This document shows, in pieces, positions 41,954-63,442 of a DNA stretch of 64,000 bases (positions within the stretch are counted from its first letter, which is position 1; the number at the start of each line of letters is the position of its first letter). The DNA lies in assembly GCA_964291625.2 (NCBI GenBank), contig OZ220089.1, positions 2,912,001 to 2,976,000 on the forward strand, in the 5' to 3' direction. The DNA comes from Candidatus Latescibacterota bacterium. Lineage in GTDB: Bacteria; Latescibacterota; UBA2968; UBA8231. The notes below the pieces were generated by a model. It worked only from the letters and a program-made list of their open reading frames with translations. It was not told the origin of the DNA and made no database searches. The position numbers and the translations under genes are program-made.

Positions 41954-43861
41954 CTACAGCCGCATCGCGATCTGGTCGAGGAGCAGCAGGACGCCCAGGG
42001 GCAGGAAGTCGCCGAGGATCAGCCCCAGGAAGAAGGGCCGCATCCGGGTGAAGAGGCGGGGGCCGCCGTAGTTGAGGATGATCGTCTTCAGCAGCCAGGC
42101 CACCAGCACGGTGAAGAACATCTTGTGGATCACCAGGCTGATGGGGAAGCCGATGGGGTGCAGGGGCCACCAGACGAGCTGCTGGCGCAGGAGCATGAGC
42201 CCGCCCATGATGCTGCCGCCGATGGCCATGTAGCCCCAGTACTCCCACTTCGGCCCCACGGAGGAGCGCACCCGCGCCAGGGCGTCCTGCCACGGATACT
42301 GCGTCTGCTCGAGGAAGTAGTGGGAGGTGTTCAGCCCGCCGTGCTCGTAGGCGATGCTCAGCATCACCCAGGCGGAACCGCCCATCGAGACGACCAGGGC
42401 CACCACCATGCTGGGGAAGATCAGCCGCCGTCCCTTCTTCACGTGCTCCTCGACGATCTTGAGCCCGTTGGAGCAGGAGACCATGACGAAGGTGATGATG
42501 TCGCTGGCCCACATGTAGGTGAGGGAGAGGGCGGCGATGCCGGTCAGCCCCAGGGCCCGGGTGCCGATCCCCCCGATGACCACGTCGGAGGCCACCATGG
42601 GGGTCACCAGGTAGGGCAGTCCTCCCTCGGAGATGATGCGGGTGATGCCGAGGAAGAGGACGAAGGCGAGGAAGAGGAAGACCACCGTGATCCACGCCGG
42701 CATCCCCGCCTGCCACAGCCAGAAGCACATGAAGCCCAGGCAGCCCAGCAGGAGCAGCACCGCCCCCCGGTAGGACAGGATCTCGTCGCCGTCGTCCATC
42801 CGCGGGCCCCGGCCGAAGGCATGGGCGAAGACCCTGCGGATGTGGCGGCGGCCGTTCCACAGGGCGAAGAGGGCGAGGACGAGGAAGGCTCCGAAGCCCT
42901 GGTGGGAGGCGATCGTGCCGCCCTGGGACCAGGGGCTGAAGAGGGGATCGATGCGCTCCACCCCGAGGGAGATCATCGCCGCTTCCTGGGCGAAGTTGAT
43001 GATGGCGAAGACCCAGAAGCCGAGGGAGACCTCGCGCCGCACCAGGTAGGTGAAGCCGATCATCATGAAGTTGATGCCGATGCGCAGGCGCAGCTGGTCC
43101 TCGAAGAAGTGGAGGTAGTAGCCGCCCACGGGGATGATCGGCAGGAACCAGAAGTGGCGGTTGACGCCGTTGTAGCACTGGATGAAGAAGGGGATGGCGA
43201 AGCCGAGCCAGAACAGCCAGCTCTTGAAGAGGGGCTTGATCAGCCCCGGGCGGTCTCCGTCGTCGATCATGGAGATCGGCAGCTGGGTCATGGGGAAGAT
43301 CAGGCGCTCGTGGTGGACCCACTGCCTCCGCAGGATGATCATGATGGCGATCATTCCCAGGTGCACGGAGAGGGCGAGGGGCAGCCAGTGGAGCAGGGGC
43401 GGCAGCCACAGTCCCCAGGGCACGCCCCCCCCGGGGGCGCCCTCGTAGAAGTCCTTGATCTCGCCGAACTCCTTGGTGGGGATCGCCCATTCGGGGATCA
43501 GGGGCAGCACCTCGTAGCCCCAGTTGTTCTCCGGACTGGCGTAGTAGACGGCGGAGGTCAGGATCGGCAGCAGGTAGGAGACGATGCCGCAGGTAGCCAC
43601 CGCCGAGCCGATGATCCACATGACGTACATCTGCGCCAGCTCGGCGGGTGACAGCATCCACCGCCGGCGCAGGATACCGGTGAGCGGGTTGAAGACGAGG
43701 ATGACGGTGAAGAGGATGATCAGCGCGCCGGGCGTGTAGTACCAGCCGGTGAATCCCGACCGCTTGAGCATCATGTCGGTGTACTGGGAGCCCGCGCCCA
43801 CCAGCAGGCAACCGAGGGCGCCGAGGAACAGGGCCCTGTACGTCGGCCGCAGGGAGCTCAC
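41954..43861 (-). CDS. DUF6785/DUF6784-like polytopic membrane protein, copy 2
   Basis: ELAQMYVM, YYASPENNW, LRRQWVHHERLIFP, WWPLHPIGF, RPFFLGLILG; start overlaps upstream GT-C stop (GTGA). Confidence 0.7.
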   Translation of the reverse strand: MSSLRPTYRALFLGALGCLLVGAGSQYTDMMLKRSGFTGWYYTPGALIILFTVILVFNPLTGILRRRWMLSPAELAQMYVMWIIGSAVATCGIVSYLLPILTSAVYYASPENNWGYEVLPLIPEWAIPTKEFGEIKDFYEGAPGGGVPWGLWLPPLLHWLPLALSVHLGMIAIMIILRRQWVHHERLIFPMTQLPISMIDDGDRPGLIKPLFKSWLFWLGFAIPFFIQCYNGVNRHFWFLPIIPVGGYYLHFFEDQLRLRIGINFMMIGFTYLVRREVSLGFWVFAIINFAQEAAMISLGVERIDPLFSPWSQGGTIASHQGFGAFLVLALFALWNGRRHIRRVFAHAFGRGPRMDDGDEILSYRGAVLLLLGCLGFMCFWLWQAGMPAWITVVFLFLAFVLFLGITRIISEGGLPYLVTPMVASDVVIGGIGTRALGLTGIAALSLTYMWASDIITFVMVSCSNGLKIVEEHVKKGRRLIFPSMVVALVVSMGGSAWVMLSIAYEHGGLNTSHYFLEQTQYPWQDALARVRSSVGPKWEYWGYMAIGGSIMGGLMLLRQQLVWWPLHPIGFPISLVIHKMFFTVLVAWLLKTIILNYGGPRLFTRMRPFFLGLILGDFLPLGVLLLLDQIAMRL

Positions 43862-45783
43862 GGGCGCCCCCCCGTGGCCGGCGGCGGTTCAGCGGCCACA
43901 CCCAGAAGCCGGTGGAGCTCCTCAACCTCGCGGCGGGCGGCGGGGTCCTCCCCGGCCTGACGCCGCAGCGCCTCTACGTGCGGCAGGGCCGCCTCGGGGT
44001 TTCCGCGCCTGATCTCCAGCCGCGCCAGCTGCCGGTGCAGGGGCAGCGCCGTCGGATCCAGCTCCAGGGCGCGTCGGTAGGCGCGGGCGGCCCCCTCCAG
44101 ATCGCCGACCTCGCGGCGGGACCAGGCCAGCCGCGCGTGGAAGACGGCGCGCTCCGGCTCATCGGCCGCCAGCCGCTCCAGGTGCAGGACCGCCGCGGCA
44201 TGATCGCCCATGTCCTGGCTCATGGCGGCCAGGCGGAAGCGGACGTCGGAGCGGTCGGGGTAGTGGTGCAGCAGGCGCTCCCAGGCCTCCGCCGCCCGGC
44301 GGATGTCGCCGCGCCGGGCGAGCAGGGCGCCGGCGTCGTGGAGGGCGATCTCGTGGTCCGGCTCCCGCTTCAGAGCCTCGTCGTAATGGCGGAGCGCGTT
44401 GGCCGGCAGGCCCTGCTCGGCGTAGGCCGACGCCAGGTAGAGGTGCTCCTGGCTGCCGCCCTCCATGTCCATGGCGGGGACGCCCGCGTTGAGGGCGAGC
44501 ACCAGGACGGCCGGCATGGCGAGCCCCAGGGCCAGCCGCCGCCCTCGCAGCCGGGACAGTCGCGTCACCCCGTACCCGGCGAAGAGCAGCAGGGAGGGGA
44601 CCGCCGGGAGCCGGTAGCGGCCGGTGACGAAGAACAGTACCACGGCTACCATGTAGGCGGCGGCGAACAGCAGCAGCAGGTCGGCGGCCGGCGACCTCGC
44701 CCGCGGGTTCCGCAGGTAGAGGACCAGCCCGGTCAGCGCGAGGGGCCCCACCAGGCCGAAGGGGAAGGCCAGCCCCCGTATCCACAGCAGCCCCTGCAGC
44801 AGCCAGGACCAGCTCCGGGCGAAGTAGGGGTCCAGGTTCCGGGGGATCTCGTCGCCGCGCCAGAACTGGTGGAGCTTGCGCAGCTGCAGGAGCAGGTAGC
44901 TCCCCGGATCGGCGGCGAGGTATTCCAGGGAGCGGCCGAAGAAGTACCTCGATGAGGCTCCCTTTTCAGTGATCCCCGCCTGACGCTCCGGCATGGCCGT
45001 CAGCTCCTGCCAGTCACGGCCAGGGCGGATTCTCGTCGTGCGGTCCGAGTCGGGGTTGTTGCCGAGGTAGAAGTTGATCCCCCCGTTGTAGGAGATCGGC
45101 ACCCACTCGCCCCCGACGATGCGGTTGCGAAGGGTGACCGGCGCGATCGCCAGGGCGACGCCGAGGACCAGGGCGCCGATGGCGGGGAGGGACGCCCGCG
45201 CCCGGAGCCGCGCCCACAGGAGGGCGATGGGCACGAAGAGAAGCACGCTGGGCACGTTCAGGGCGGCCAGGCCCAGGAGCAGACCTGCGGCCAGCCAGCG
45301 GCCGGGGGACCGGCCCCCGGCAGCCCACAGCAGGGCGGTCAGCGCCAGGGCGTTGAGGAAGACCGCCAGGGCGGCGGGCAGCAGCTCGCCCTCGAAGTAG
45401 AGGAAGGGGCCGTAGACGGCGGCGGCGCCGGCGGCGATCCAGCCCGCGGCGGGAGAGAAGGCGCGGCGGCCCAGGTGGAGGATCAGGAGGCAGACCGCCG
45501 TCCCGGAGATCGCCTGAAGGAGCCGGGGCAGGTGGTAGCCCTCGCCGAAGAGGGCGAAGGCCCCGGCGAGGAAGAAGGGGTACAGGGGCGGCTGCCAGAA
45601 CGGCTGAGGCGGACCGAGCCACTGGCCCTCGGCCAGGTGCAGAGCCGTGCGCACGTAGGTGCGGGCGTCGACGATGGGGTGGTAGAAAAGGGGGCTGTCA
45701 TCGGCCTGGAGCAGATAGACCAGCCGCACGGAGAGAGCCGCGAGGCCCAGCAGGCCCAGAGTGATCCAGTGCCGGCGTTTCAT
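43858..45783 (-). CDS. GT-C fold (ArnT/PMT-like) glycosyltransferase with C-terminal TPRs
   Basis: PIVDARTY, FWQPPLYP, LLQA, NGGINFYLGNNP, FFVTGRYRLP; multiple TM segments then TPR-like helices. Confidence 0.8.
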   Translation of the reverse strand: MKRRHWITLGLLGLAALSVRLVYLLQADDSPLFYHPIVDARTYVRTALHLAEGQWLGPPQPFWQPPLYPFFLAGAFALFGEGYHLPRLLQAISGTAVCLLILHLGRRAFSPAAGWIAAGAAAVYGPFLYFEGELLPAALAVFLNALALTALLWAAGGRSPGRWLAAGLLLGLAALNVPSVLLFVPIALLWARLRARASLPAIGALVLGVALAIAPVTLRNRIVGGEWVPISYNGGINFYLGNNPDSDRTTRIRPGRDWQELTAMPERQAGITEKGASSRYFFGRSLEYLAADPGSYLLLQLRKLHQFWRGDEIPRNLDPYFARSWSWLLQGLLWIRGLAFPFGLVGPLALTGLVLYLRNPRARSPAADLLLLFAAAYMVAVVLFFVTGRYRLPAVPSLLLFAGYGVTRLSRLRGRRLALGLAMPAVLVLALNAGVPAMDMEGGSQEHLYLASAYAEQGLPANALRHYDEALKREPDHEIALHDAGALLARRGDIRRAAEAWERLLHHYPDRSDVRFRLAAMSQDMGDHAAAVLHLERLAADEPERAVFHARLAWSRREVGDLEGAARAYRRALELDPTALPLHRQLARLEIRRGNPEAALPHVEALRRQAGEDPAARREVEELHRLLGVAAEPPPATGGRP

Positions 45784-45795
45784 GGGCGATGTAAC

Positions 45796-45832
45796 AAAAA
45801 AACGCTGGACAGGTCGTCAGACCTGCCCAGCG
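45796..45832 (-). terminator. Intrinsic terminator 2
   Basis: Minus strand CGCTGGGCAGGTC-TGAC-GACCTGTCCAGCG-TTTTTTT (13-bp stem, one G-U pair, U7). Confidence 0.9.
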
Positions 45833-45838
45833 CGGGTC

Positions 45839-45868
45839 AAAAAGGAGACTTCTGAACTGCGAAGCCTC
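45839..45868 (-). terminator. Intrinsic terminator 1, at the stop codon
   Basis: Minus strand GAGGCTTC-GCAGTTCA-GAAGTCTC-C-TTTTT. Confidence 0.6.
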
Positions 45869-46793
45869 AGAACTGAGCCTTGATCCTGCCCCAGCTCTTC
45901 GACTCGACAGCCGTCGGGAAATTGATGGAGGGGTTGACGGGCTCCAGGAAGAAGTCGCCCTGGCCCAGCCACGTTCCCTCGCCGCCTGGCCTGGTGGACC
46001 ACGCGGGACCGCCGTGGGCGCCGTCAGGCAGGTTGCCGTCGTCGTCGGTGTTGAAGAAGGTGATGTGGATCGTCTGACCCTCGGTGAGCGAGGCGAGGGT
46101 GATCATGTCCGGAGACTTGTCCTCCGCGTCGAGTCCCCCGACCCAGTGGTCGATGGGCGCCACCCGGTGCTCGTAGTGGTAGGTGCTCTCGCCGAACTCC
46201 TCGCCTTCGAAGGTGTGTTCCAGGGTCCAGAACTCGCTGCCGCTGTCGAGCCAGTCGCACCCGACGCAGATGCCGATGACCATCCAGAATTCGCGGTCGG
46301 GCAGCTTTGGCAGGGCGTAGTTGAAGCCCCAGTAGGCGTTGATGTTCTCGCCGGCCAAGTCTCTCACTTCCTGCTCGGAGAGGTGCCGGATGGTGAAGAA
46401 GTACTCGCTGGCGTCGTCTTGGTACCAGTCCCACCCCGTGGGATCGGGGCGGTCGGTGTTATGGATGTCATCGTAGATGGAGTTGCAATAGTAGAGCTGC
46501 CCCGTGCTGGCGCTCCAGCCGACGCGGATGGTGGCATCGAAGGAGCTGGGGTCGGCGTCGCCCTTCTGGGTCCCTTCGGGCTGCCAGTCGTTGAAGGGAT
46601 AGAGATCGGCGTTGGTGATCCAGTACTGGTCGCCGGGGATGGCGTCCCAGTCGGAACAGTCACCGTCGATGGTGGGCTCGGCCCCGGCCGGGAACTGCAC
46701 CGTGTTCCTGACCTCATCCTCGGGGATGTGGGCGAAGACCGCCGTGGAAACGGCGAGAACGCCGACGACGATCATCTGCGCGCATCTGAACAT
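45867..46793 (-). CDS. Secreted CBM9/DOMON-like sugar-binding protein with C-terminal TAVESKSWGRIK tag
   Basis: Signal peptide (STAVFA); PTIDGDCSDW, RVGWS....LYY, DD, E.RV pattern; RBS AAGGAGAG before ATG 46793. Confidence 0.65.
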   Translation of the reverse strand: MFRCAQMIVVGVLAVSTAVFAHIPEDEVRNTVQFPAGAEPTIDGDCSDWDAIPGDQYWITNADLYPFNDWQPEGTQKGDADPSSFDATIRVGWSASTGQLYYCNSIYDDIHNTDRPDPTGWDWYQDDASEYFFTIRHLSEQEVRDLAGENINAYWGFNYALPKLPDREFWMVIGICVGCDWLDSGSEFWTLEHTFEGEEFGESTYHYEHRVAPIDHWVGGLDAEDKSPDMITLASLTEGQTIHITFFNTDDDGNLPDGAHGGPAWSTRPGGEGTWLGQGDFFLEPVNPSINFPTAVESKSWGRIKAQF

Positions 46794-46946: not shown

Positions 46947-49115
46947 TCAATAGGCCAGAGAGAGGAGGCGGGTGGCCGTCCTGCGCCCCTCGTCACTCAT
47001 CAGCCGGACTTGGGCAAGGTATACCCCCGGCGCCGCCGGGCCGCCGGCATCGTCGCGGCCGTCCCAACGGTGGACGAAGTGGCCGCTGGCCATCGAGGCT
47101 TCCAGCCGCCGCACCAGGCGGCCGTCCAGGGTCAGGATCCGCACCTCCACGGGTCGCGCCTCGGTGAGGTCCCGCAGGTCGAAGGAGAGGATCGCCTCGT
47201 CGTTGATCCCGTCGCCGTTGGGCGTGAAGACGGCGGGCCGGATGTCGAGCCGCTGCAGCAGGCCGCCCCCGGTGGGGGTTCGCACCGAGAGGCCGTCGCC
47301 GACGAAACGGACGGTGGCGTTGCCGGGGGTGACGCTCTGCTTGAGGTCCGGCTCCCGGCTGTCGTAGACCCAGCCGCTGAACTCCGCCCCGAAGCGCAGG
47401 ACGCGGGCGCTGAACTCCACCTCGATCCGCTTCTCGCTGTCGCGCCCCGGATCCTCCAGCCGGTCGAAGGAGAGGAGGATGCGGTCTTCCAGGACCTCGG
47501 GCGGAAACCGCTCCATGACCTCCTCGCCGCCCACGCGCACCGAGGTCACCGCCAAGGCGGGCCCGCCCGTGAGAATCTCCAGGCGGTCGAAGCCGCGGTT
47601 GCCGTCGCGGAGGATCGGCTTGACCACGTAGGTGAAGGTGTGGGGCTCGAAGTCCTCCACCTCGATGGGCCAGATCTCGCCGATGACCTGGGAGGCCGCC
47701 GGCGACTCGGAGAACAGCAGGGACAGGTCGTGGAGTACGGGTGTCCGGTCCCTGGCGGCCGTCAGCACGATCTCGAACTGGAGATAGCGGGTCGGTCCGG
47801 GGGAAATCAGCGGGGTGCCGTGCGACCAAGAAGCGGCGGGGTCCTCACCGCGCTCGCCCGCGGCCAGGTCGTAGGTGGCGGACCAGAAGCTCCAGTTCTC
47901 CAGGTCGATGACGCGCTTGACCTCTCCCGAGGTGATGTCCTGCTGAAAGCTGAGCCAGTCGATGGGCTGGTACCGCCCGCTGACGCCGCGCCGCAGGAAG
48001 ATGTCGGGGCTCGGGGTGTTCCCGGTGCGGGTACGCAATTCGATGGAAGTGCCGGGGGGGCGTTCCGACCTCCAGCGGATCTTGCTCCAAGAGACCGGCT
48101 GGCCGAAGTCCAGGATCTGCGAGCGGTAGACGGAGCGGCGCACGTATCCCTCGCCGTAGATCTCGATCTCCGCCAGCTCCCAGGTCCGTTCCGGGATGTA
48201 GGGGCGCACCGAGACGAAGCGCTCGTGGCGCACGGGGAACCGGAGATCGATCACCGGATCCAGGTTCTCCCGGGTCTGGATCAGGGCGTCGAAGTTGGGG
48301 TCGGTCCCGGCCGAATCGACGTATCCGGTGGTCTCGGAATACCGCTTGAACTGCCCCTGGCCTGGGCGCTGCCCGCCGCCCGTGCTGCCGGGAAACTCCT
48401 TGATCGGAGCGTCGTTGTCGGTCACCGCGATCTCGTACCACTCGAGGTAGTTGTCGGCGAAGCTGGTCTCCCCGAACAGCTCCGGGTCGGGCTTCGGCTC
48501 CGCCATGGCGGCGATGGCCGCGGCGTCGTCGACGCGGCCCAGCCGCGGGTAGACGCGGATCCGGTTGATCGGCGTCTGCTTGCCCAGGTTGATGATCACC
48601 GCCGAGGCCTGGGCCCCCAGGTACACCCCGCCGCGGACCAGGGGCTCCGCCAGGAGGGGGTTGTCCTCGAGCAGCATCAGGCGCGCGGTGGTGGGGTCCT
48701 CGTCGAGGGCCAGCAGCAGATCCCCGGTGGGGTAGCGCTGGGTGTTGTGCCCTTGGTAGATGCTGCCCCCCCGCCCGAAGAGGACGCTGTCCCGGGCGAG
48801 GTTCACCATGGGATCGATCCATTCCGCCCGGAGCATGCCGCCCTCCATGTCGGGCCAGTCGGGCCCCCGGTAGTTGTACTCGAGGAGGAAGGTCCCCCCC
48901 CCCTCTTCCTCGATGGACCTCACCGGGTGCTCCCGGAGCACGTTGCCGGCGGAGTCCACGGCCACGTAGGCTCCTGCGGGGCCATCCTCCTCGGGGACGG
49001 CGAAGAGTTGCCAGTCGTTCGCTCCGGATCCCAGGTGGAATTCGGCACGCGCCCAGAGGGTGCCGGCCAAGGAGAGCAGCAGGGCGGCGGCGGTGAATCC
49101 GATGCGGTTGATCAT
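46947..49115 (-). CDS. Secreted protein, discoidin-like domain plus C-terminal FlgD-Ig-like domain (family B copy 3)
   Basis: Signal peptide; INLG....NRIRVYPR, YGEGY, LRTRTG, ENWSFWS, FTPNGDGIND, WDGRD..G..APGVY, ends LSLAY. Confidence 0.75.
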   Translation of the reverse strand: MINRIGFTAAALLLSLAGTLWARAEFHLGSGANDWQLFAVPEEDGPAGAYVAVDSAGNVLREHPVRSIEEEGGGTFLLEYNYRGPDWPDMEGGMLRAEWIDPMVNLARDSVLFGRGGSIYQGHNTQRYPTGDLLLALDEDPTTARLMLLEDNPLLAEPLVRGGVYLGAQASAVIINLGKQTPINRIRVYPRLGRVDDAAAIAAMAEPKPDPELFGETSFADNYLEWYEIAVTDNDAPIKEFPGSTGGGQRPGQGQFKRYSETTGYVDSAGTDPNFDALIQTRENLDPVIDLRFPVRHERFVSVRPYIPERTWELAEIEIYGEGYVRRSVYRSQILDFGQPVSWSKIRWRSERPPGTSIELRTRTGNTPSPDIFLRRGVSGRYQPIDWLSFQQDITSGEVKRVIDLENWSFWSATYDLAAGERGEDPAASWSHGTPLISPGPTRYLQFEIVLTAARDRTPVLHDLSLLFSESPAASQVIGEIWPIEVEDFEPHTFTYVVKPILRDGNRGFDRLEILTGGPALAVTSVRVGGEEVMERFPPEVLEDRILLSFDRLEDPGRDSEKRIEVEFSARVLRFGAEFSGWVYDSREPDLKQSVTPGNATVRFVGDGLSVRTPTGGGLLQRLDIRPAVFTPNGDGINDEAILSFDLRDLTEARPVEVRILTLDGRLVRRLEASMASGHFVHRWDGRDDAGGPAAPGVYLAQVRLMSDEGRRTATRLLSLAY

Positions 49116-49131
49116 GGTTTCAGGCCCCTCG

Positions 49132-52100: not shown

Positions 52101-52242
52101 TGGTCCAGGCCTCCCAGTGCCGCGCACGGTCGACGACGACCTGGCCGCCGCGCACGTCGTAGCCGTTCTGCGCGAGGAGGGGGCCGCCCCACAGCGGCAA
52201 GAGCGCCCACAGGGCCGCCCCGACTCTGCGCCATGTGGTCAT
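49132..52242 (-). CDS. Large secreted protein, discoidin-like domains plus FlgD-Ig-like CTD (family B copy 2)
   Basis: Start at TGATG overlap (52242, or 52248); signal peptide; LVDGDPTTFW, IRTRTG, WSPWS, NPFTPNGDGIND, ends IALAY. Confidence 0.75.
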   Translation of the reverse strand: MTTWRRVGAALWALLPLWGGPLLAQNGYDVRGGQVVVDRARHWEAWTMPTHLVRLERDGTVRSREFRTVYELLSDRSFGRPVVLTRDAPRIANVDSTVRRDFRGDPVRDLGDNLVYDHVVRPGGSRAGSNPHLMHHLVDGDPTTFWEPDLDDPPEDWWVEVGLGRPVPLERLRLSFVEEEWGDPFYRFLILVGPAQGSYVDDVPRNTDVFIPFDGVNTDRRTFVFDAERVSEYLPADALTDPDRRLPISDSYKGSSTYLGVGEPSPEWDGKLVELIRIVVTDTRGGRAEEVGEEDWQALPAAERGDVVHFLRDGDFEEPVSEETWLSLPEDRRGGRVHYRRELPRLAEVEAWGRGDDLGIEFLSGGGSVEETSTSGQPGFMFDGIYGSHNQVSTYIVSEPGRNTITVDMGGTVWLKEVRTVGFNPPRGYRLRSSIGARDAQGNLQWDQFSSVERETNLHNGHYRLLADPLEPSRRVRFLEMIAFALPDDASELTSRYWPRIRLMWLFAEGPAAEAVLESDLIELPGEVTLGAVRWEADEPPGAEVQIRTRTGDQLLERIRYFDTDGNEKTASQYKRLSFTRKGPVDTSYVAGPGWSPWSRKYERPGDPATSPGLRRFMRIQARLVNHDRVSVPAIRRISVDLKTPVAQRLGAEVWPDVSAAGQLDTFEVFLQPGFLEGSSGSQSPGFDELLLRADPPLDMRLIDLAAGTEDELTRDEPAMLFEQPHVDGLQDAEGRVMRVLGHRDSLWLRLPEPVRSAPEELLPRTFYRRLAPGDEVPAGLDGRLLTQNGYNDLPEEEQGAIRYFRLDGEELEEVDAAAWEELPEEEKGPVRFYRIVTTLGEQTVYSALGDSLSDRQYARLRSAERGRVIGPGRLLRVRFASAVYLPSTLLELAVRNSGLDTSWQGAAGEDVTGLRPATSLAIRADEIGRIVDDLAIAPNPFTPNGDGINDEARIRFSLLSVAAARPVQVRIYSLGGRLVRGLEFDLLGGPQTVVWDGREDGGALAPPGLYLCQVGALADSEAGRRKRSRVIALAY

Positions 52243-54986: not shown

Positions 54987-54997
54987 GGCCGGCCCGT

Positions 54998-57079
54998 TCA
55001 GTAGGCGATCCCCACGGCGCGTGCCGCCGCGGTGGAGCGGGCGTCGCCGTCCACCGTCAGCTGCACCAGATAGAGCCCGGGAGGCAGCGGGTTCCCCCGG
55101 TCGTCGCGGCCCCCCCAGTCGAGGCCGGCGAAGCCGGCGCTGGTGTAGGTGCCGTTGCCGCCCTGATGCTCGAAGATCGTGGCCCGGCGCCGGCCGCTGA
55201 CGTCGAAGAGGGCCACCTCGATGTCGGCCTCGCCCACCACCGTGAGCACCTCGAAGCTCAGCCGCAGGCGGTCGTTCACCCCGTCGCCGTTGGGGGTGAG
55301 GACGGGCGCCTCCAGGGAGAAGCCGCCGATGAGCCCGCCGCGGGTCACCCCCGGACTGAGGACGGTGATGCCGGATTCGAAAGCCGCGTCGTCCTCGTCC
55401 AGAAGGCCGGCGTCGCCGCCCTCCACCCACTGGAAGGCGTCCGTCCCCTCCACCAGGGCCCGCCCCGCGAAGTCGCTGCTGTAGGCCAGGACCTGGTTGA
55501 CGAAGCGGATCTTGAGCACCGTGCCGTCCTCGGTGATCCGCGGGAAGCGGACGGTGAAGGCCTCGTCGGTGAAGGAGGTGATGGCCGCCTCGCCCTCGTC
55601 GGTCACCGCGTCCTGCGTCTCGAAGTCGTGAGCGAGGATCGTCGTCCCGTCGGCGGCGACCATCTCCAGGCCCTCGATCCGTTCGGCCCGGCCCTGGGTG
55701 GACAGCTCGAAGGCGTTGAACCCCTGCACCTCGGCGCGCCTCATGTCCGCCCGCACGGCGTACACGAACCGGGTGGGAAGAGCGGCCTCCACGTCGCGGG
55801 GGAAGATCTCGGCCACGAGGGCGTCGGCCAGGGCCGGCCGGGTGAACTCGAAGGAGATGCCCTCGAGGACCTGGCTCGAGTGCAGCCCCCGGCTGAGGAA
55901 CTCGACCTGGAACTGGAAATAAGTCCGCGGCGCCGGGGAGACGTTGCGGGTGCCCGCGGCGCTCAGGCCCTCCGTGGCCGGGTAGGGCGGCGACCAGGGG
56001 CTCCAGTTCTCCACGTCGTCCCCTATGGACCCGCGCTCCCAGAGATCGCTAGCCGCGCCGTCGGCGGGCAGGGCGAGGAACTCCTTGCGCGAGAGGGGTT
56101 CGCCCGGATTGTCGACGGACCGGGGGATGTCCTCGGCGTTGGGGTTCCCCACCTCGCGGCGGTTGTAGACGAAGGGAGTATCGTCGCTCCCGGTGCGGGT
56201 GCGGATGACGAGGCCGGTGAGGGCCTCCTCTCCGGTCACGCTTCTCTGCCAGCGGACCTGTCCCCAATTGCTGGGGGTGCCCAGGTCGACCACGGGGGAC
56301 AGGTAGCGGGCGAAGGGGTAGAACCCCTCGCCGAAGATCTGGAACTTCTCGATCTCGTAGGGTATGGCCGAGGTGGCCCGCAGGCGCACGAAGCGCACGT
56401 ACCGGGGCGGGTCGATCTCCACCACCGTCACCGGCTCGGAGTTGTCGTCCACGGTGAGGAAGGACTCCCAGGTGCCCAGGGCGGGAAGTCCGGCCTCGTT
56501 GAGGAGCAGGCCGTCGTGGATCCGCACCTCGAAGTTGCGCAGGAAGTCGTCCTCGAAGGGGGTGGTCGGCGAGGGCAGAAGGGTGTTGCGCGGGAAGAAG
56601 CGGAGGCGGTTGACGCCGACGATCGCCCCCAGGTCCACGGTCAGCAGGGTGCCCTGGATCTTGTCGCCCTTGCGCTCGAAGGCGGTGCCCGTCGACTCGG
56701 GGGTGAGCAGACCCTGCAGGATCTCGGCCAGCAGCCTCCTGTCGAGCTCCAGGGATGTCTCGGAGACGATACTGCCGCCGTTGGCCACGAGGCTGGCGGA
56801 CAGGTTCTCGCCCTCGTCCAACTGGACGGGCAGGAGGGCCTGCGGATGGTCGCCATGGTCCAGCTCGACGCGGCCGTCCGGGGCGACGCCGATGGCGGTG
56901 ACCCCCGGCGTGAGGGAGGGGCGGAACTCGGGCTGGATGGTGGCCACGCCCTCCAACCCGGAGACCTCCCCCTCCCAGGTGATGTTCCCGTCCCGGCCGA
57001 AGCGCACCTCCTGGGCGCCGGTGGGGGACAGCCCCGTGAGCACCGCCAGGGCCAGGCGGACCAGGACCCCGGCCCTCAC
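54998..57079 (-). CDS. Secreted discoidin-like plus FlgD-Ig-like CTD protein (family B copy 1)
   Basis: Signal peptide; VDLG....NRLRFFPR, FGEGF, IRTRTG, ENWSPWS, LTPNGDGVND, WGGRDDRG..LPPGLY, ends VGIAY. Confidence 0.75.
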   Translation of the reverse strand: MRAGVLVRLALAVLTGLSPTGAQEVRFGRDGNITWEGEVSGLEGVATIQPEFRPSLTPGVTAIGVAPDGRVELDHGDHPQALLPVQLDEGENLSASLVANGGSIVSETSLELDRRLLAEILQGLLTPESTGTAFERKGDKIQGTLLTVDLGAIVGVNRLRFFPRNTLLPSPTTPFEDDFLRNFEVRIHDGLLLNEAGLPALGTWESFLTVDDNSEPVTVVEIDPPRYVRFVRLRATSAIPYEIEKFQIFGEGFYPFARYLSPVVDLGTPSNWGQVRWQRSVTGEEALTGLVIRTRTGSDDTPFVYNRREVGNPNAEDIPRSVDNPGEPLSRKEFLALPADGAASDLWERGSIGDDVENWSPWSPPYPATEGLSAAGTRNVSPAPRTYFQFQVEFLSRGLHSSQVLEGISFEFTRPALADALVAEIFPRDVEAALPTRFVYAVRADMRRAEVQGFNAFELSTQGRAERIEGLEMVAADGTTILAHDFETQDAVTDEGEAAITSFTDEAFTVRFPRITEDGTVLKIRFVNQVLAYSSDFAGRALVEGTDAFQWVEGGDAGLLDEDDAAFESGITVLSPGVTRGGLIGGFSLEAPVLTPNGDGVNDRLRLSFEVLTVVGEADIEVALFDVSGRRRATIFEHQGGNGTYTSAGFAGLDWGGRDDRGNPLPPGLYLVQLTVDGDARSTAAARAVGIAY

Positions 57080-59064
57080 GGCCCCACCCCCATGCGGGAC
57101 TGCAGTTGGTCGGTCATCATGCTCGTCACCAGCGTCAGGTGCCCCTGCAGGTCCTCGCGCTCGCGGTTCCGCTGATAGCGGACGTAGGCGAGGCGGGACT
57201 CCTCGGCGCGGGCTTCGTCCCCGAGGCGCTCGTAGGTCAGGGCGAGGTAGTAGTGGACCCGGTGGTCTTCGGGCCAGACCTGGCGCAGGCGTTCGAAGAG
57301 GGCGGCGGCCTCCCGGTGGCGGCCCTGCTCGTGGAGCTGGCGGCCCCTCAGCCCCAGGGCCGCTCCCGAGTCCGGCGCCGTCTCCAGGACCTGCTCCAGC
57401 ACCTCCGCCGCTTCCTGGCCGCGGCCTCGGCGGATCAGCACCTCGGCCAGGACGGGACCGTACTCGGCCACCTGTCCCCCCTCGTAGAGGGCGCGGCAGG
57501 CCTCCTCGGCCTCGGGCAGCCGGCCGGCGGCCGAGTAGAGCAGGGCCAGCATGCCGCGGGCCCGGACGTTGCCCGGCTCCGCCTCCAGCGCCCGTTCATA
57601 GGCGCCCAGGCCCCCCTCCACGTCGCCGCTGCGGAACAGGGCGTCGCCCAGAAGGGTGAGCAGCGAATCCGCGGGGGCGGCCTGCGCCCTGATCAGCTCC
57701 CGGTAGCATCTGGCCGCCTCGGCCGCCCGCCCCGAGGTCAGGTAGACCTTGGCGAGGGCCATGCGGGACTCGTGCATCTCCGGCCAGCGCTCGAGCAGGC
57801 TCTCGTAGAGGCCGGCGGCGCGGATGTCGTCCTTCTGGGCCCGGTAGTGCCCGGCCAGGGCCTGGTAGGTCTCCAGCCTGGCGGGGTCGAGGGAGAGGGC
57901 CGTCTCGTACTCGCGGACGGCGTTGGCGCGCAGTCCGAGCTGCCCGAAGCCATGGCCGAGCCAGTAGTGCTGCCCGGCCCGGCCTTCGGCGCCCGCATCG
58001 CCGGCGTTGAGGCCGATGGCCAGCAGGAGGCAGGCGGCCGCCGCCGCCAGCGCCGGCAGCCTCGGAAGGGTGGCCATCGCCGTCACCCCGGCCGCGGCGA
58101 AGATCAGCAGGACCGGCACCGCCGGGGCGCGCACCGCCGAGTCCGCGGCCGGCAGGAGCAGGGCCTGCACGGTGAAGCAGCCGGCGAAGAGGAGGAGGGC
58201 GATCTCCAGCGGCCCTCGCCCGCCGCGCAGGCGCGCGAAGATGCCCGCCAGCGCCAGGGGCGCCGCCACGCCGAAGGGGAAGGCCAGCCCCTCGTCCCAC
58301 AGCAACACCGACAGCAGGCTGGAGCTGCGGCTCCCGAAGTAGGGATCGACCTCCCCCAGGAACTCGCCTCCCTGCCACAGGGCGTGGACCCGGCGGAGGC
58401 CCTCCCCCAGCCCCGGAGCCGCCTCCGGCGCCCAGGCCGACAGCAGCCAGGCGGGCAGCAGGACGGCGGCCGTCCCCAGTGCCAGGCGCAGGGCCGCACC
58501 CCGGCGGCTCCGCAGCAGCCAGAGGGCCAGGGCGAGGGCGAAGAGGCAGATCCACCACTCGGCGAGGGCGGCGAGCCCCAGGAGCAGCCCCGGCAGCCAG
58601 AACGGCCGCTCCCCGGAAGAGGTGAGGGCCCGCGACAGGGCGATCAGGGCGAGCAGCACCAGGCACGTGGCCAGCACCGGAGGCAGGATCTCGCCGGAGA
58701 AGTAGATGGCAGGTCCGTAGAGGGCGAGGGCCAGGCCGGCCCCGAGAGCCGCTTTCGGCGGGAGGGCGGACGACCTGGCCAGCCACCAGAGCAGGACGCA
58801 GTTGACGGCTCCGAGGACCACCTGGACTCCGCGAACCAGATCGAAGTCCCCGGGGACGACGGCGAGAAAGGCGTCGTAGAGGGAGACGAAACCGGCCGCC
58901 TCGCCAGAGCTGCGCTCCAGGTGGGCGATGGCGGACCCCAGCGGGACCTCGCGCACAGGGTGGCTGCCGGACTGGTGGACGTAGATCCACCGGGCCGCCA
59001 GGGCGGCGGCGAAGATGGCGGCCCCCTCGCCGGCGGCGCTGCGGCTCATCTCCCGGAGGCTCAT
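57076..59064 (-). CDS. GT-C-like membrane protein with C-terminal TPRs, divergent paralog of 43858-45783
   Basis: ATG 59064; shares YGP..YF.GE.LP, LWQG.E...EVDPYF, LLW..GLAFPFG..APLAL.G, then TPRs. Confidence 0.72.
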   Translation of the reverse strand: MSLREMSRSAAGEGAAIFAAALAARWIYVHQSGSHPVREVPLGSAIAHLERSSGEAAGFVSLYDAFLAVVPGDFDLVRGVQVVLGAVNCVLLWWLARSSALPPKAALGAGLALALYGPAIYFSGEILPPVLATCLVLLALIALSRALTSSGERPFWLPGLLLGLAALAEWWICLFALALALWLLRSRRGAALRLALGTAAVLLPAWLLSAWAPEAAPGLGEGLRRVHALWQGGEFLGEVDPYFGSRSSSLLSVLLWDEGLAFPFGVAAPLALAGIFARLRGGRGPLEIALLLFAGCFTVQALLLPAADSAVRAPAVPVLLIFAAAGVTAMATLPRLPALAAAAACLLLAIGLNAGDAGAEGRAGQHYWLGHGFGQLGLRANAVREYETALSLDPARLETYQALAGHYRAQKDDIRAAGLYESLLERWPEMHESRMALAKVYLTSGRAAEAARCYRELIRAQAAPADSLLTLLGDALFRSGDVEGGLGAYERALEAEPGNVRARGMLALLYSAAGRLPEAEEACRALYEGGQVAEYGPVLAEVLIRRGRGQEAAEVLEQVLETAPDSGAALGLRGRQLHEQGRHREAAALFERLRQVWPEDHRVHYYLALTYERLGDEARAEESRLAYVRYQRNREREDLQGHLTLVTSMMTDQLQSRMGVGP

Positions 59065-59066
59065 CC

Positions 59067-61739
59067 CTACTCCAGACCGGCGTAGATGGTGACGAAGAAC
59101 TGGTTGGTGGTCCGGGACTCGCGCTCCTCGAAGGCGCGGTGCTCGACCGAGACGCCCAACAGCGAGCGCAGGCGGTAGCCCAGGTAGGTGGAGTCGGTGG
59201 TGAACTGCACGGCCACCGTGAGGGAGTCGAAGTCCTGCTCGTCGTCGTCGAGATCGTTGAGGTACAGGTACTCGACACCTGTCTGGACCTTGGAGGAGCT
59301 CAGGACCCGGGTCTGGGCGATGATCCCCGCCATCTCGGTGAGGCGCGACCGCCGTCCGGCGCCGAAGAGGCCGCGGCTCTGGCGGGTGTACTCGCTCTTC
59401 CACCGCGGCTCCAGGAGGAAGGGTCCGATCCGGTGCCGGTAGCTGACCTTGTCGATGAGGCCGAAGAAGTAGTCCTCGCGGGCGAGGCCGAGCTCCCGGC
59501 GGCGCTCGCCGGACATGCGCTGGTCGTAGAGGAGGTGGTTCACCTTGTTGACCACCAGCCACGGCCCCGACTCCAGGGAGTGGCCGAGGAAGAGCTGGTT
59601 GATCCAGGTGTCCTGCCCGAGCAGGGGGTCCTCGATCAGGACGAGCTCGCCGCCGCGCAGGGAGTTGTCCGGGGCCCACTGCAACAGGGGATCGGGGATG
59701 TCGTCCTGGACCCACTGGGTCATGAGGAAGAGGCGCAGGCGGCCGAAGCGGGGCGAGTCCGAATCGATGGTCGCCAGGGCGTAGTTGCTGTGATTCCTGC
59801 GGTCGCTGGAGATCAGCTCCTCCCGCAGCACGCCCGCCATCAACTTCATCCCCGGGGCGACCTCGGCGCCGCCGTAGATGTTGAACCCCTCGTGGTCCTT
59901 GCGGTACGGGAAGTCGGGAGCCTCGTCGTTCTCGTACTGGTCGACCCAGAAGTTGTGGTTCATGTCGACGCCGAAGAGGAACTCCGGCGGGTCGACGCCG
60001 AAGCGCAGGAAGGCCTCCTCGTAGTCCGGGACGGCATTGGTCCGGACCCTGTTGTCGTTCTGGTTGAAGTCGGGCACGAAGTCGTTGTTCTGGTCCCAGC
60101 CGGGATAGACCTCCGTGTCGCCCCTCAACCAGTCCGAGCGCACCGTGTCGGGGATGCGGTCGTGGTCGTCGTTGTCCTCCACCAGCTCGTACCCGCTCCG
60201 GCGGGTGTCGCCGTAGTAGATCTCTCCGACCCGGGTGCACAGGAGGGAGCGCGTGTTGTAGAACGGGTCCATGCTGTAGGCCTCGCCGAAGAGGAACCAG
60301 GGGGCCTTCCTCCGGGAGACGTTCAGCATCCACGCCGGGGCGCTCTCGGCGCCCTCGATTCCCGAGCTGGAGTGGTGGATCTCCTCGGCCGCGTTGGGGT
60401 ACTTGCGGTAGCTCCAGCTGCGGTCGTACTCGCCGTACACGTCCAGGCCGAAGGGGGCGCGGATCTCCAGGCTGCCGCCGGCCACGTGGGTCGCCGTGGG
60501 CAGGCCGTAGTGGAAGCGCAGGGTGCGCAGGTTGGTGATGTCGCGGACGTTGCCCTCGGCCTGGGCCACCAGGAGCAGCACCGGCTGCCCGTGGAAATCG
60601 GTCTGGCTGTCGGAGGTCATCCAGACCTGGTAGTCGTTGCCCATCTGCAGCCGGAACTCGACCTCGACGATCTCGGCCTTGGTGTGCTTCGCGCGGTCGA
60701 GGAATCCGGGGCTGTCGAAGTTGTAGATCAGCCGGATCTCCTCGGTGCCGTCGGCGGCGATGAAGCCCTGGCGGACGATGCCGCCCTCCACCACCGGCGT
60801 GAAGCCGATCTCCCGGCCGCGCTCCTGCGTGCCGTCCTGGTAGGTGATGAAGATGTCGGACCCGGCGGGGAACCAGGCGGCGCCGCCCTCCCCGTCCGCG
60901 GGGGAGTCGTCGCGCAGGACGATCTCGATGGAGGAGATGGCCTCGTTCTGGGCTACCGTCAGCTCGCCGGCGAAGGGGTTCCAGCTGGTCTTGTCCCGCA
61001 GCGTGTTGGACTGGTGGGCGTTGACGCCGTGGACCCCGAGCTTGAGGTAGTCGCCGACCTGGGCGGCCAGCCGCCCGCCGACGAGGCTGGTGTTGTTGGT
61101 GCTCAGGAACTCCCGGTCGAGGGTGCTGCTGCCGCCGGGGCTGCTGATGCGCGAATAGAGCAGGGTGGCCTCGGCGCGGTCGGTGGCCAGGTCGAACTGC
61201 AGCCCGTCGAAACGGGGCTTGGAGAACACCATGGGCGTCAGCACCGTGCGCAGCTGATTGCTCACGGTGAGGGAGAAGTGGTACTGGCCCTTCTGGTCGT
61301 GGGTGACGACGACGCCCGAGAACCAGTCCCGGAAGCGGTTGGACTTGAGCAGCGAGTTCCCGAACTGTTCCGGCGTGGTCTGCGAGTTGTTGTAGATCAG
61401 CCAGCCCCGGGTGAGGAAGTTGCCGTAGATGTCGTAGAAGTGCTCGCCCTCGAGGGTGGTGTCGATGTAGCGCTGGTAGTGGTCGCGGGCGTAGTTGGTG
61501 TAGTCCCACTGGCGCCAGCGGTAGTCCAGGTAGAGCTCCTGGGGCACGTACCACTTGCGCATGGCCGGGTCGACGGCGTTGAGCATGACCCCCGGCCCCT
61601 GGGGGGCGAGGCTGTACTCCTCCCCCTGGCGCAGGCCCAGCCGCGCGCCGTAGTCCTGCTGCGCCGCGGCGGGCAGCAGGCCCAGGGCGAGCAGCCCCAG
61701 GAGACCGAGAGCAGCTGCCGGATTGCCGTGCAGGTTCAT
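59067..61739 (-). CDS. Asp-rich putative outer-membrane protein (family C copy 1)
   Basis: RBS AAGGAG, ATG 61739; signal peptide, QQDYGARLG, DPAMRKWYVPQELY, ends FFVTIYAGLE. Confidence 0.72.
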   Translation of the reverse strand: MNLHGNPAAALGLLGLLALGLLPAAAQQDYGARLGLRQGEEYSLAPQGPGVMLNAVDPAMRKWYVPQELYLDYRWRQWDYTNYARDHYQRYIDTTLEGEHFYDIYGNFLTRGWLIYNNSQTTPEQFGNSLLKSNRFRDWFSGVVVTHDQKGQYHFSLTVSNQLRTVLTPMVFSKPRFDGLQFDLATDRAEATLLYSRISSPGGSSTLDREFLSTNNTSLVGGRLAAQVGDYLKLGVHGVNAHQSNTLRDKTSWNPFAGELTVAQNEAISSIEIVLRDDSPADGEGGAAWFPAGSDIFITYQDGTQERGREIGFTPVVEGGIVRQGFIAADGTEEIRLIYNFDSPGFLDRAKHTKAEIVEVEFRLQMGNDYQVWMTSDSQTDFHGQPVLLLVAQAEGNVRDITNLRTLRFHYGLPTATHVAGGSLEIRAPFGLDVYGEYDRSWSYRKYPNAAEEIHHSSSGIEGAESAPAWMLNVSRRKAPWFLFGEAYSMDPFYNTRSLLCTRVGEIYYGDTRRSGYELVEDNDDHDRIPDTVRSDWLRGDTEVYPGWDQNNDFVPDFNQNDNRVRTNAVPDYEEAFLRFGVDPPEFLFGVDMNHNFWVDQYENDEAPDFPYRKDHEGFNIYGGAEVAPGMKLMAGVLREELISSDRRNHSNYALATIDSDSPRFGRLRLFLMTQWVQDDIPDPLLQWAPDNSLRGGELVLIEDPLLGQDTWINQLFLGHSLESGPWLVVNKVNHLLYDQRMSGERRRELGLAREDYFFGLIDKVSYRHRIGPFLLEPRWKSEYTRQSRGLFGAGRRSRLTEMAGIIAQTRVLSSSKVQTGVEYLYLNDLDDDEQDFDSLTVAVQFTTDSTYLGYRLRSLLGVSVEHRAFEERESRTTNQFFVTIYAGLE

Positions 61740-61750
61740 CGACTGGCTCC

Positions 61751-63442
61751 TTACCCCTTCGCGTGCCGTTGTTCCAGGCGGTCCTCGAAGACCTGTATGC
61801 GGTCCCCGTATCTCTCTCGCAGGGACTTGAAGAGGGCGGAGACCCGGGTGTCCCGCCCCTTGGCGCGGAGGTGCTGCACCACGGCCGCGCGCGCCTGCTC
61901 GAAGGTCAGGAGGCGGCTGCCCTCCCGCTCCAGGACCCGCAGGATCGCATGGCTGTCGACTTTTTTCAGGTACAGGGGGCCCAGCACCTCGCCCACGGGC
62001 GCCGAGAAGGCAGCTTCCACCAGCTCCGGAAAGCCCTCGGCGAGATGGCGTTGCAGGACCATCTCGCCGCCCTTCCTGTGGATGCCGTGGGAGGCCGCGC
62101 CCGGACGCCGGAGGATCTCGGCGAAGGCAGTTCCCCCCTCGATCTCGCCGCGCCACCGCAGGGCCTCGTCCTCGTCCTCCGTGTGCACTTCCTCGATGCG
62201 GGCCCTGTCGCCGGCGCGGAACAACTCGCGGTTCTCGTCGTAGTAGCCCCGAACCTCCTCCTCCGAGAACACCAGGTGGTCCTCCACGTCGATCTGCATG
62301 AGGTGGTCCACCAGAAGCCCGTCGCGGGTGTGGGCCCGCCATTCCTCGAAGGCCTCGTCCTGGTGCCATCCCCGTTGCCGCGCGGCGAAGGCGAAGAGAC
62401 GGGGGTAGAGGAGCTCCCGCTCGGCGATGGAGAGGATGAGGGCGCTGTCCGACAGGGCCGAGCTCTTGGCCATCTTGCGGACCCGGTCCACGAAGTCGGC
62501 GGCGGTGATGGGGGCCCCGCCGGCCCAGGTGAACAGCGGCTGGCGGGCCTGCTCCGGGGTCAGCTCCGGCTGGCGCGCCCGGGTGCGCTCGATGAGGGCG
62601 CGCACCCCCTCCGGGCGGGGGCTTACGTCCTGGTCCCGCCGGAGCAGCTCGACCTCCTCCTCGGTGCGGCGCCACCACTGCTCCATGAAGAGGAGCTTGC
62701 GGACGTCGTCGGCGTAGAGCTGGATCGGCGCCTCGCGGTCTTCGGCGAAGCGGATGATCTGCCACCCCAGCTGTGAGAGGGGGAGCAGGGCGGGGGTTCG
62801 CACCGGCAGGGAGAGGAACTCGCCCTGCGGCACCCGGAGGCGCTTGAGTCCGGGCACGCCGACCCAGCCGATGGTTCCGGTCGAGTCGGTGCTGGGGTCG
62901 TTGGGGGCGTACTCCCTGGCCAGCTCGTCGTAGCCGGTTCCCGACTCGAGCTGCTCGAAGACGGCGCGGGCCTCGGCCTCGCTCCCCTTGAGGACGATGC
63001 GCTGCAGCAGCCGCTCGCGGTCGAAGCCCATGTCGTGGAAGGCGCGCTCCACCTCCTTGGGGCCGATCTCGACCTTGGGGGCGATCACCTGGCGCTGGTA
63101 GCGCATGGAGAGCCAGGCCCGCTCCGCGTCCTCCATCTGCCGGGCCAGGGCCGAGGTGGTGTCGAGCCCCCGGCCGTGGGCCTCAAGCAGCAGCAGCTCC
63201 TGGTCGATCACGGACTGCAGGTGGTCCCGGTCGGCCTGGACCCCCTCCTGGTCGCTGACCAGGTGGTCCGGCAGCCGGTCGACGAATCTCTCGAGTCCGG
63301 CCTCGGTGATCTCGGCATCGCCGACCCGGGCCAGGACCACCTCGTCGGGACCGCAGCCGGCGAGGACGGCGGCCAGGAAGGATGGCACGATGGTTCGGAG
63401 GGGGATGGGGAAACGGCCGGCGGGGGCCCTGGCAATCGGCAT
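61751..63442 (-). CDS. PpiC/SurA/PrsA-like peptidyl-prolyl isomerase lipoprotein
   Basis: Lipobox VLAG-C; VLARVGDAEIT, LIDQELLL-like motif (VIDQELLL), two rotamase-like domains, TFEQAR..V; start uncertain (63442-63454). Confidence 0.75.
   Translation of the reverse strand: MPIARAPAGRFPIPLRTIVPSFLAAVLAGCGPDEVVLARVGDAEITEAGLERFVDRLPDHLVSDQEGVQADRDHLQSVIDQELLLLEAHGRGLDTTSALARQMEDAERAWLSMRYQRQVIAPKVEIGPKEVERAFHDMGFDRERLLQRIVLKGSEAEARAVFEQLESGTGYDELAREYAPNDPSTDSTGTIGWVGVPGLKRLRVPQGEFLSLPVRTPALLPLSQLGWQIIRFAEDREAPIQLYADDVRKLLFMEQWWRRTEEEVELLRRDQDVSPRPEGVRALIERTRARQPELTPEQARQPLFTWAGGAPITAADFVDRVRKMAKSSALSDSALILSIAERELLYPRLFAFAARQRGWHQDEAFEEWRAHTRDGLLVDHLMQIDVEDHLVFSEEEVRGYYDENRELFRAGDRARIEEVHTEDEDEALRWRGEIEGGTAFAEILRRPGAASHGIHRKGGEMVLQRHLAEGFPELVEAAFSAPVGEVLGPLYLKKVDSHAILRVLEREGSRLLTFEQARAAVVQHLRAKGRDTRVSALFKSLRERYGDRIQVFEDRLEQRHAKG

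Follow-up and report, generated by a model that had tools for sequence, protein, structure and literature searches.

Several described envelope systems resemble, each in part, the gene cluster that we have analyzed here in a 64,000-nucleotide stretch (the window; positions 2,912,001 to 2,976,000 of contig OZ220089.1, assembly GCA_964291625.2) from a Candidatus Latescibacterota bacterium. This cluster of ten genes encodes, among other proteins, two very large predicted outer-membrane beta-barrels (family C: C1 and C2) and three lectin-like proteins with a C-terminal tag (family B: B1 to B3). TonB-dependent transporters, including SusCD, share with it and its related loci a large barrel with an N-terminal segment, ExbB/ExbD and a single-pass, His-bearing transducer with an extended linker; SusCD systems also share surface carbohydrate-binding modules and the dependence of many paralogous cassettes on few motor loci. 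Type-B cargo of type 9 secretion systems (T9SSs) shares a PNGDG.ND-type tail on a secreted surface protein and, in the ancestral layout, a small barrel gene directly downstream. According to the accessible portion of PMC12618676, porP/sprF sits directly behind the type-B cargo gene in Flavobacterium, type-B cargo proteins are known or predicted adhesins, their shuttles are considered stoichiometric, and several orphan cargo proteins can share one shuttle; PMC9143113, also in its accessible portion, is cited as well for type-B cargo with a cognate PorP/SprF shuttle (SprB-SprF, PG1035-PorP-PorE). T9SSs are given as only possibly present in other phyla of the Fibrobacteres-Chlorobi-Bacteroidetes group in the accessible text of PMC11285876. 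The myxobacterial Agl-Glt machinery, as presented in the accessible part of PMC11761067, shares TolQ/ExbB with two TolR/ExbD-like subunits, TonB-like transducers, tetratricopeptide repeat (TPR) scaffolds, as many as three barrels and a surface adhesin. Our literature search, outside which lay subscription journals and supplements, found no description of the system treated here; PMC4454575, in its accessible text, mentions only porins and TonB import.

We interpret the window as a satellite cassette of a larger system, the motor genes of which lie in master loci elsewhere. In this tentative interpretation, to which we give slightly less than an even chance, the system is a multi-copy, proton-driven apparatus for capture and import at the outer membrane, energized by ExbBD and SusCD-like in its working without being homologous to SusCD; most likely it captures and imports nutrients. 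The same 151 genomes of the phylum were profiled for presence and absence of C, the B tag, a DUF4159 subfamily, a small-barrel subfamily and SprA. C was found in 91 genomes and the tag also in 91, with identical tallies for each family. The DUF4159 subfamily occurs in 89 of the 91 genomes with C and the small-barrel subfamily in 80; both are absent from the other 60 genomes and all their occurrences fall in C-positive families. SprA was found in 149 genomes, including 89 of those with C. Ten families are entirely C-positive and four entirely C-negative. A profile of the B body gave one weak match (E 1e-16 to 1e-19) in 14 of the 60 C-negative genomes, and matches were equally weak in 2 of the 91 C-positive ones; the B body is thus a poorer marker than the tag. 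At 50% identity, family C has 1208 representatives. Among 20 distant clusters, the named members are Latescibacterota or Handelsmanbacteria; the one exception is a Pirellulaceae label, attached to a contig of 2.7 kb. A related locus carries the title Woeseia, and these two records may be binning errors.

The genome of the window (G000; in its coordinates the prefixes C1: and C2: denote sequences and not the barrels C1 and C2) contains 25 C and 29 B genes by our own gene calls, spread over 12 loci. One C paralogue is split into pieces of 799 and 110 amino acids (L013:13527-16405). No more than 15 kb separates a C gene from 29 of 29 B, 7 of 7 PpiC, 5 of 6 GT-C/TPR, 10 of 27 CBM9-like and 10 of 27 DUF6785 genes; for all genes the share is 6%, and for proteins with a type-A-like C-terminal domain (CTD) it is 4 of 63. 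The clustering of companion genes around C exceeds chance by far, while the length of the gene run is not itself rare (46 of 1722 runs hold at least 10 close co-oriented genes). PpiC and GT-C/TPR companions recur in four other families.

All ten genes lie on the minus strand in the order given by an earlier note on this DNA (Table 1). Their intergenic gaps, from PpiC to DUF6785, are 11, 2, -4, 11, -7, 16, 153, 83 and -4 bp; the DUF6785 gene (41954-43861) falls mostly beyond position 43858, at which that note had begun the cluster. A terminator-like hairpin stands between the CBM9-like gene and the last two genes, and no sigma-70-like promoter was found. The note had also described a repeated layout in which each C gene is followed by one or more B genes. 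This is true of the window but not in general: in the 75 closest related loci, which are not independent of one another, B lies directly upstream of C 93 times and downstream 6 times. Since relatives usually keep the order PpiC, B2, C1, GT, B1, B3, C, CBM9-like, with B2 orthologues mostly placed directly upstream of C1 orthologues, the layout of the window is a rearranged one. B is present in 73 of these loci, GT-C/TPR in 54, CBM9-like in 54, PpiC in 50 and DUF6785 in 24. Other expectations of the note were borne out, namely that B and C co-occur across genomes, that PpiC and GT-C/TPR are dedicated companions and, on the model described below, that C is a membrane barrel. All 30 bins are covered by contigs of a single sponge RNA run, at a depth that is low and flat and for which no silent control exists; this is no proof of transcription.

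C1 was modelled by AlphaFold2 from a 143-row alignment (pLDDT 84.5, pTM 0.83). DSSP assigns to the model 23 long strands, mostly with alternating hydrophobic residues, and the protein ends at its last strand; on this model, family C is a large outer-membrane beta-barrel. Shorter strands before residue 112 may form a 24th strand or a plug. The N-terminal segment, about 110 residues ahead of strand 1 with conserved Tyr, Asp and Gly, is modelled partly at low confidence and may fill the barrel lumen. Because short turns and long loops alternate consistently, two inserts (residues 244-385 and 465-589) are placed on one face, which is probably extracellular. The second insert is rich in Asp and Asn, with many invariant Asp residues, and probably binds calcium.

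Neither C1 nor C2 has a family match in Pfam or NCBIfam. One profile search of C against PDB sequences gave no matches and another gave two chance matches. The structural matches listed are all membrane beta-barrels with a TM-score to the query of at most 0.24, and fold searches returned generic barrels, none standing out (best Z 13.9, rmsd about 12); the novelty of the fold is not demonstrated by such generic matches. The similarity to the chaperone-usher pore PapC is likewise generic (Z 11.5, rmsd 3.9, 252 residues aligned); C has no match to ushers (PapC/FimD) in Pfam or NCBIfam and the cassette contains no pilin gene. The ESM Atlas holds 30 unnamed clusters, and the nearest named cluster, DUF6029 at 0.88, is a lead only. 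No homology of C to SprA or to another protein of the genome was found with hmmsearch --max. In a FastTree phylogeny of 53 proteins, computed without bootstrap or root test from 24 of the 25 C genes of the genome (the split gene was omitted) and distant fetched loci, C1 and C2 of the window fall in a long-branched type I clade (support 100), apart from type II barrels, which form three paralogue classes common to several families. FG-GAP/ASPIC-UnbV proteins, frequently accompanied by TPR proteins, recur beside type I cassettes, as does a conserved lipoprotein-like gene of 240-260 amino acids (L007, L010, L012, L014 and L120).

The model of B1 (pLDDT 92) is almost wholly beta. Residues 65-234 adopt a predicted CBM32/F5-8-type jelly roll (4a42, Z 14.7, rmsd 2.1, 124 aligned) and residues 559-671 resemble the CTD of PorU (6za2, Z 12.0, rmsd 2.6, 99 aligned). 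The final residue is Tyr in all 189 tagged B proteins of the 75 related loci. The resemblance of the B tails to type-B sorting domains, claimed in the earlier note, holds for the PNGD motif and the PorU-CTD-like fold, yet the tails score only 20.5-21.8 bits against the CHU_C cut-off of 27, and TIGR04131 gave no match to them at E 0.01. The same Ig family is found in FlgD and in streptococcal proteases, so that the fold alone is no proof of a secretion signal. The N-termini of the three B proteins of the window contain no lipobox Cys, and no match to the SusD profile was found in B. About 60 other proteins of the genome end in an ordinary type-A-like tail.

The motor genes are best seen in a master locus of the same genome (C1:283-308 kb), where B, C, CBM9-like, small-barrel, TPR, ExbB, ExbD and DUF4159 genes occur together; at the end of its B/C locus the small barrel comes first, followed by TPR (1097 amino acids), ExbB, ExbD and DUF4159. 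Comparable master loci exist in G009, lacking B and C, and in G016, lacking the small barrel. At the four type II C loci, TPR and DUF4159 genes are nearby in all and ExbB/ExbD within about 10 kb in three. DUF4159 proteins have a single N-terminal helix, with a His in it in 13 of 16 (one truncated gene call excluded), and a Lys/Arg/Pro-rich linker. TonB likewise has an N-terminal helix with His and a Lys/Arg/Pro-rich linker. ExbB/ExbD and this TonB-like transducer are tied to C by genetic linkage only, in the master loci. Genome G003 has 17 C matches and one tag; at eight of its fetched C loci, all without B, DUF4159 adjoins C in seven, CBM9/WxxK-tail genes are near in seven and DUF6785 in five. 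Fused membrane/spermidine-synthase/TPR proteins also recur near C loci of this genome (L105:3803-6811, L107:2205-5540 and L115:3033-6389). In one cassette of the window's genome (C2:386937-394330; L119:6937-14327), a TonB-dependent receptor takes the place of C, next to an uncharacterized protein and a PorV-family barrel; a receptor-like cassette (C1:1351574-1360241; L118:6577-15241) adjoins a DUF6785 gene, and the uncharacterized protein of these cassettes has 825-1081 amino acids. A general role of ExbBD/DUF4159 as a T9SS motor replacing GldLM was rejected, as the 60 C-negative genomes have SprA and none has this DUF4159 subfamily.

The same motor genes could instead belong to an ExbBD-powered machine for adhesion or surface positioning comparable to Agl-Glt, in which the barrels would provide a platform to hold the B adhesin and link it to the motor, with no import. 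We consider this unlikely, though it accounts for several observations. Motor-bearing loci contain two or three barrels of ancient paralogue classes, ExbB with two ExbD, a large TPR protein and small lipoproteins, and those of G006 and G012 have proteins with an AgmX/PglI C-terminal (TonB-C-like) domain right after DUF4159 (L099:8533-9513 and L102:16656-17726). This recalls the three barrels, TPR proteins, TolQ/TolR-like motor and surface adhesin of Agl-Glt (PMC11761067, accessible part), and agrees with the known or predicted adhesin nature of type-B cargo (PMC12618676, accessible part). However, the Glt barrels match no part of C, the Agl-Glt adhesin is a vWA lipoprotein without a T9SS link, and Agl-Glt is a single machine, whereas a dozen cassettes per genome, and more in relatives, resemble substrate-specific uptake loci, as does the linkage of CBM9-like and DUF6785 genes in the absence of B. 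Homologues of GltA/B/H or CglB gave no NCBIfam match among C and B; relatives show only motor-type and AgmX/PglI-domain analogues. Import is favoured by the copy number, the lectin-like folds, DUF6785, and the cassettes of the same genome in which a TonB-dependent receptor replaces C.

Concerning the route to the surface, the genome encodes SprA, five PorV-family genes and two PorU genes over cut-off, all outside the window. The earlier note had reported no known secretion gene; this holds for the predicted genes of the window, in which no core T9SS gene was found apart from a DUF5723 barrel at 4544-5929, but not for the genome. That barrel, of 461 amino acids, follows a secreted-looking protein of 656 amino acids without Pfam match (2577-5929 together, plus strand) and weakly matches the small-barrel profile; the two are possibly another cargo-plus-barrel pair. 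As to the energization of the T9SS of this genome, GldN and GldM were not found in searches in which no control genome reached the cut-off either, and which took in neither GldK nor GldL; the controls are thus uninformative. PorP/SprF (TIGR03519) exceeded the cut-off in none of the 151 genomes, and the control genomes also gave no match.

In five distant genomes, each of the nine tag matches has a C gene no more than 1.2 kb downstream, and in eight of these nine loci a gene of 270-330 amino acids is located between tag and C. All six of these small barrels that were scanned match PorV_fam below cut-off (37-62 bits; cut-off 90), and two match PorP weakly (at most 21 bits; cut-off 90); the subfamily profile was built from these six distant genes. 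Two copies occur in trans in the genome of the window (G000 C1:289072-289998 and C2:448747-449604). Because it stands directly behind B in the distant relatives, this small barrel of the PorV/PorP superfamily is more likely than C to be the partner for the tag, and its position is what the type-B rule of Bacteroidota predicts (PMC12618676, accessible part). The comparison with T9SS type-B cargo has its limits: the B tail is set apart by its CHU_C score, its seven-strand PorU-CTD-like fold and its invariable final Tyr, the small barrel is far under the PorP cut-off with no PorE-like partner seen, and a 100-kDa barrel C with an ExbBD/DUF4159 motor has no counterpart there.

It is quite improbable, in our view, that C itself is what binds or exports the B tail, whether in the role of an oversized PorP/SprF analogue or as a dedicated pore with its own foldase and glycosyltransferase, which is the reading to which the earlier note came closest. 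B directly precedes C 93 times in the 75 related loci, which is the porP/sprF position in Flavobacterium, and tag and C have one shared distribution, with PorP/SprF over cut-off in none of the genomes. In addition, no small barrel was detected in 11 of the 91 C genomes, and the 28-29 tags of the window's genome face only two, while type-B shuttles are thought to be stoichiometric; on this last account the reading keeps weight in the lineage of the window. But several orphan cargo proteins can share one shuttle (both statements on shuttles from the accessible part of PMC12618676), the small barrel fills the canonical slot in eight of nine distant tag loci, and C genes far outnumber B genes in G003, G006 and G012. 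A PorP/SprF shuttle is a small barrel of about 300 amino acids matching TIGR03519, whereas C has 890 amino acids, 23 long strands and no NCBIfam match, and the presence of SprA in 89 of 91 C genomes means that no additional pore is required. A complex prediction for mature C1 and the B2 tail, a pair chosen by synteny, scored 0.00 twice with controls that did not fold, and is evidence neither way. While the earlier note was right that C maps to no known T9SS component, the self-contained barrel-plus-passenger assembly that it had proposed finds no support, in view of SprA, PorV and PorU in the genome and of ExbBD, TPR and DUF4159 genes that track C elsewhere; nor does its role for C as a PorP/SprF analogue, in view of the dedicated small barrel between B and C in distant loci and of the many C genes without B. 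Least probable is that C acts as a large, passive porin or as a structural protein of the outer membrane like SlpA/OmpM, with the other genes as co-clustered envelope cargo, since this leaves the tight DUF4159/ExbBD linkage unexplained: the SlpA porin of Deinococcus/Thermus (PF21620; PDB 8ae1, 8agd) is also a very large barrel, SlpA/SDBC is among the top Foldseek rows (E 1e-8 to 4e-8, TM-score about 0.2) and 7 of 45 distant C proteins weakly match SlpA_C (best E 7.9e-7; best 28.3 bits, cut-off 35), but these matches are local, spanning a single stretch of about 70-130 residues, and all below cut-off, and Pfam finds neither an SLH anchor nor any other family in C1 or C2.

We thus return to energized capture and import, for which the following mechanism is proposed. 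The PpiC lipoprotein would help to fold the 100-kDa C barrels, each of which has two large inserts at the surface and an N-terminal segment that may occupy the lumen. B would leave the cell through the T9SS translocon SprA, as its fold, the genome content and the gene order suggest, and its TPNGD...Tyr tail would be taken up by the small barrel of the PorV/PorP superfamily, the gene of which directly follows B in the ancestral layout and lies in trans in this genome. B would then remain on the surface with its CBM32-like head beside C. ExbB/ExbD, the TonB-like DUF4159 transducer, with its one membrane helix (usually bearing a His) and Lys/Arg/Pro-rich linker, and the membrane-anchored TPR protein of 1100 amino acids would transmit force to C and open it. 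CBM9-like proteins would bind the substrate, DUF6785 would move it over the inner membrane, and the GT-C/TPR proteins may glycosylate exported parts. Two roles appear most likely: that of B as T9SS cargo held by the small barrel and that of C as the outer-membrane end of an ExbBD-type motor. While gene layout and co-distribution are observed, the folds are predictions, and we infer the secretion route, the contacts, the energy coupling, the substrates and the glycosylation.

The SusCD-like alternative of the earlier note comes closest to this explanation, although homology is lacking. C has no detectable homology to the receptor barrel or plug, the transducer ends in DUF4159 and not in TonB_C, the candidate lid B is T9SS-type cargo of almost all beta structure and not a helical SusD lipoprotein, and the cassette of the window holds no glycoside hydrolase. 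Several observations weigh against the proposed mechanism. The presence pattern follows families, so that few independent events underlie it, and two of the profiles (A8 and A9) had C-linked genes as their source. The F5/8 fold of B1 matches the DOC and IFT25 domains, which are not lectins, equally well. Residues 1-53 of C1 are mostly of low confidence in the model, which bears on a plugged lumen, and neither Pfam profiles of the TonB receptor and plug (PF00593, PF07715) nor hhalign (probability 0.3%) gave a match in C; the 25 PF00593 matches of the genome include no C gene. Proximity to C is limited to 10 of 27 CBM9-like and 10 of 27 DUF6785 genes. Motor genes are missing from the window and from most of its sibling cassettes, and at four solo C loci of G006 and G012 neither B nor DUF4159 occurs in the 20 kb fetched. 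Finally, the fixed triple of ancient barrel paralogues in motor-bearing loci fits a structural platform equally well.

The features of the cluster are summarized in Table 1. Matches to Pfam and NCBIfam comprise Rotamase_2 for PpiC, PMT_2 and TPR twice, DUF6785/6784, and CHU_C and FlgD_ig below cut-off on all three B tails.

Table 1. Features of the cluster (positions in the window).
Feature	Positions	Strand	Remarks
PpiC foldase gene	61751-63454	minus	SurA/PrsA-like; lipobox-like Cys read from sequence
C1 gene	59067-61739	minus	predicted outer-membrane beta-barrel of 890 amino acids, no known family
C1 inserted beta-rich domain	60507-60932	minus	model residues 244-385
C1 Asp/Asn-rich insert	59895-60269	minus	model residues 465-589, 16% Asp
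GT-C/TPR protein 1	57076-59064	minus	looks degenerate; without DA motif and large loop; PMT_2 below cut-off
B1 gene	54998-57079	minus	signal peptide, CBM32/F5-8-type fold, beta stalk, tagged C-terminal Ig domain (predicted)
B1 CBM32/F5-8-type fold	56312-56821	minus	
B1 tagged Ig domain	55001-55339	minus	PorU-CTD-like, TPNGD motif, final Tyr
C2 gene	52242-54986	minus	barrel paralogue, 52% identity to C1; alternative start 54920
B2 gene	49132-52248	minus	long B subtype, F5/8 domain and tag
B3 gene	46947-49115	minus	B paralogue with tag
CBM9-like secreted protein	45867-46793	minus	short WGxIK-type C-terminal motif
Intrinsic-terminator-like hairpin	45802-45833	minus	14 pairs and T run; consensus match only
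GT-C/TPR protein 2	43858-45783	minus	intact-looking; PMT_2 over cut-off, DA motif kept
DUF6785/DUF6784 polytopic membrane protein	41954-43861	minus	Pfam match

The two GT-C/TPR proteins differ: the second retains the acidic motif of the first GT-C loop, while the first lacks the conserved DA dipeptide and the large loop kept by the four other aligned paralogues. Per 1000 residues, the Bacteroidota O-glycosylation motif occurs 3.9 times in B, 1.6 times in C, 3.6 times in type-A cargo and 2.2 times overall, which is uninformative. The CBM9-like protein of the window has no Pfam match itself; two of five paralogues scanned match CBM9_1 weakly. Tandem arrays of CBM9-like genes (G000 C1:3471490-3548220 and C2:1083343-1088595) encode a WGxIK/WGxLK-type C-terminal motif far from C genes; this motif also terminates unrelated proteins and may be a third sorting tag. 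The DUF6785/DUF6784 protein is a candidate inner-membrane importer, and a second such gene (38990-40981, plus strand) converges on the cluster. Elsewhere in the window, the segment 18659-31028 encodes several proteins of 510-680 amino acids with no Pfam match or a weak match to GHL6; three of them share a PPxWALL-type N-terminal motif with a gene just past the window end, and the family may be an undescribed catabolic one. The plus strand carries, at 36075-36568, a small gene pair that includes a PemK/MazF-like toxin fragment and, at 32200-33093, a beta-lactamase-family gene (PF13354).

The elements new here are the dedicated small barrel, the concordant distribution of four components and the motor-less cassettes tied to master loci. 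They might define a class of its own among envelope machines driven by ExbBD-type motors, next to TonB, Tol-Pal and Agl-Glt, a possibility that we rate somewhat below an even chance: a non-homologous giant barrel would be driven via DUF4159, with lectin lids delivered by the T9SS through a private tag and shuttle, in dozens of substrate-specific cassettes of sponge and marine Latescibacterota. If true, this would provide functions for three unannotated families at once (barrel C, DUF4159 and DUF6785), a new fold family of large outer-membrane barrels and, outside Bacteroidota, a T9SS sorting tag of a third kind. If a barrel without relationship to TonB-dependent receptors is coupled to a motor, energized outer-membrane transport would have arisen more than once. 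With 25 barrels and 29 partners here, and more candidates in relatives, C and B genes represent a sizeable share of the genome in these abundant sponge and marine bacteria, and for that reason they probably shape the feeding or attachment of these uncultured organisms.

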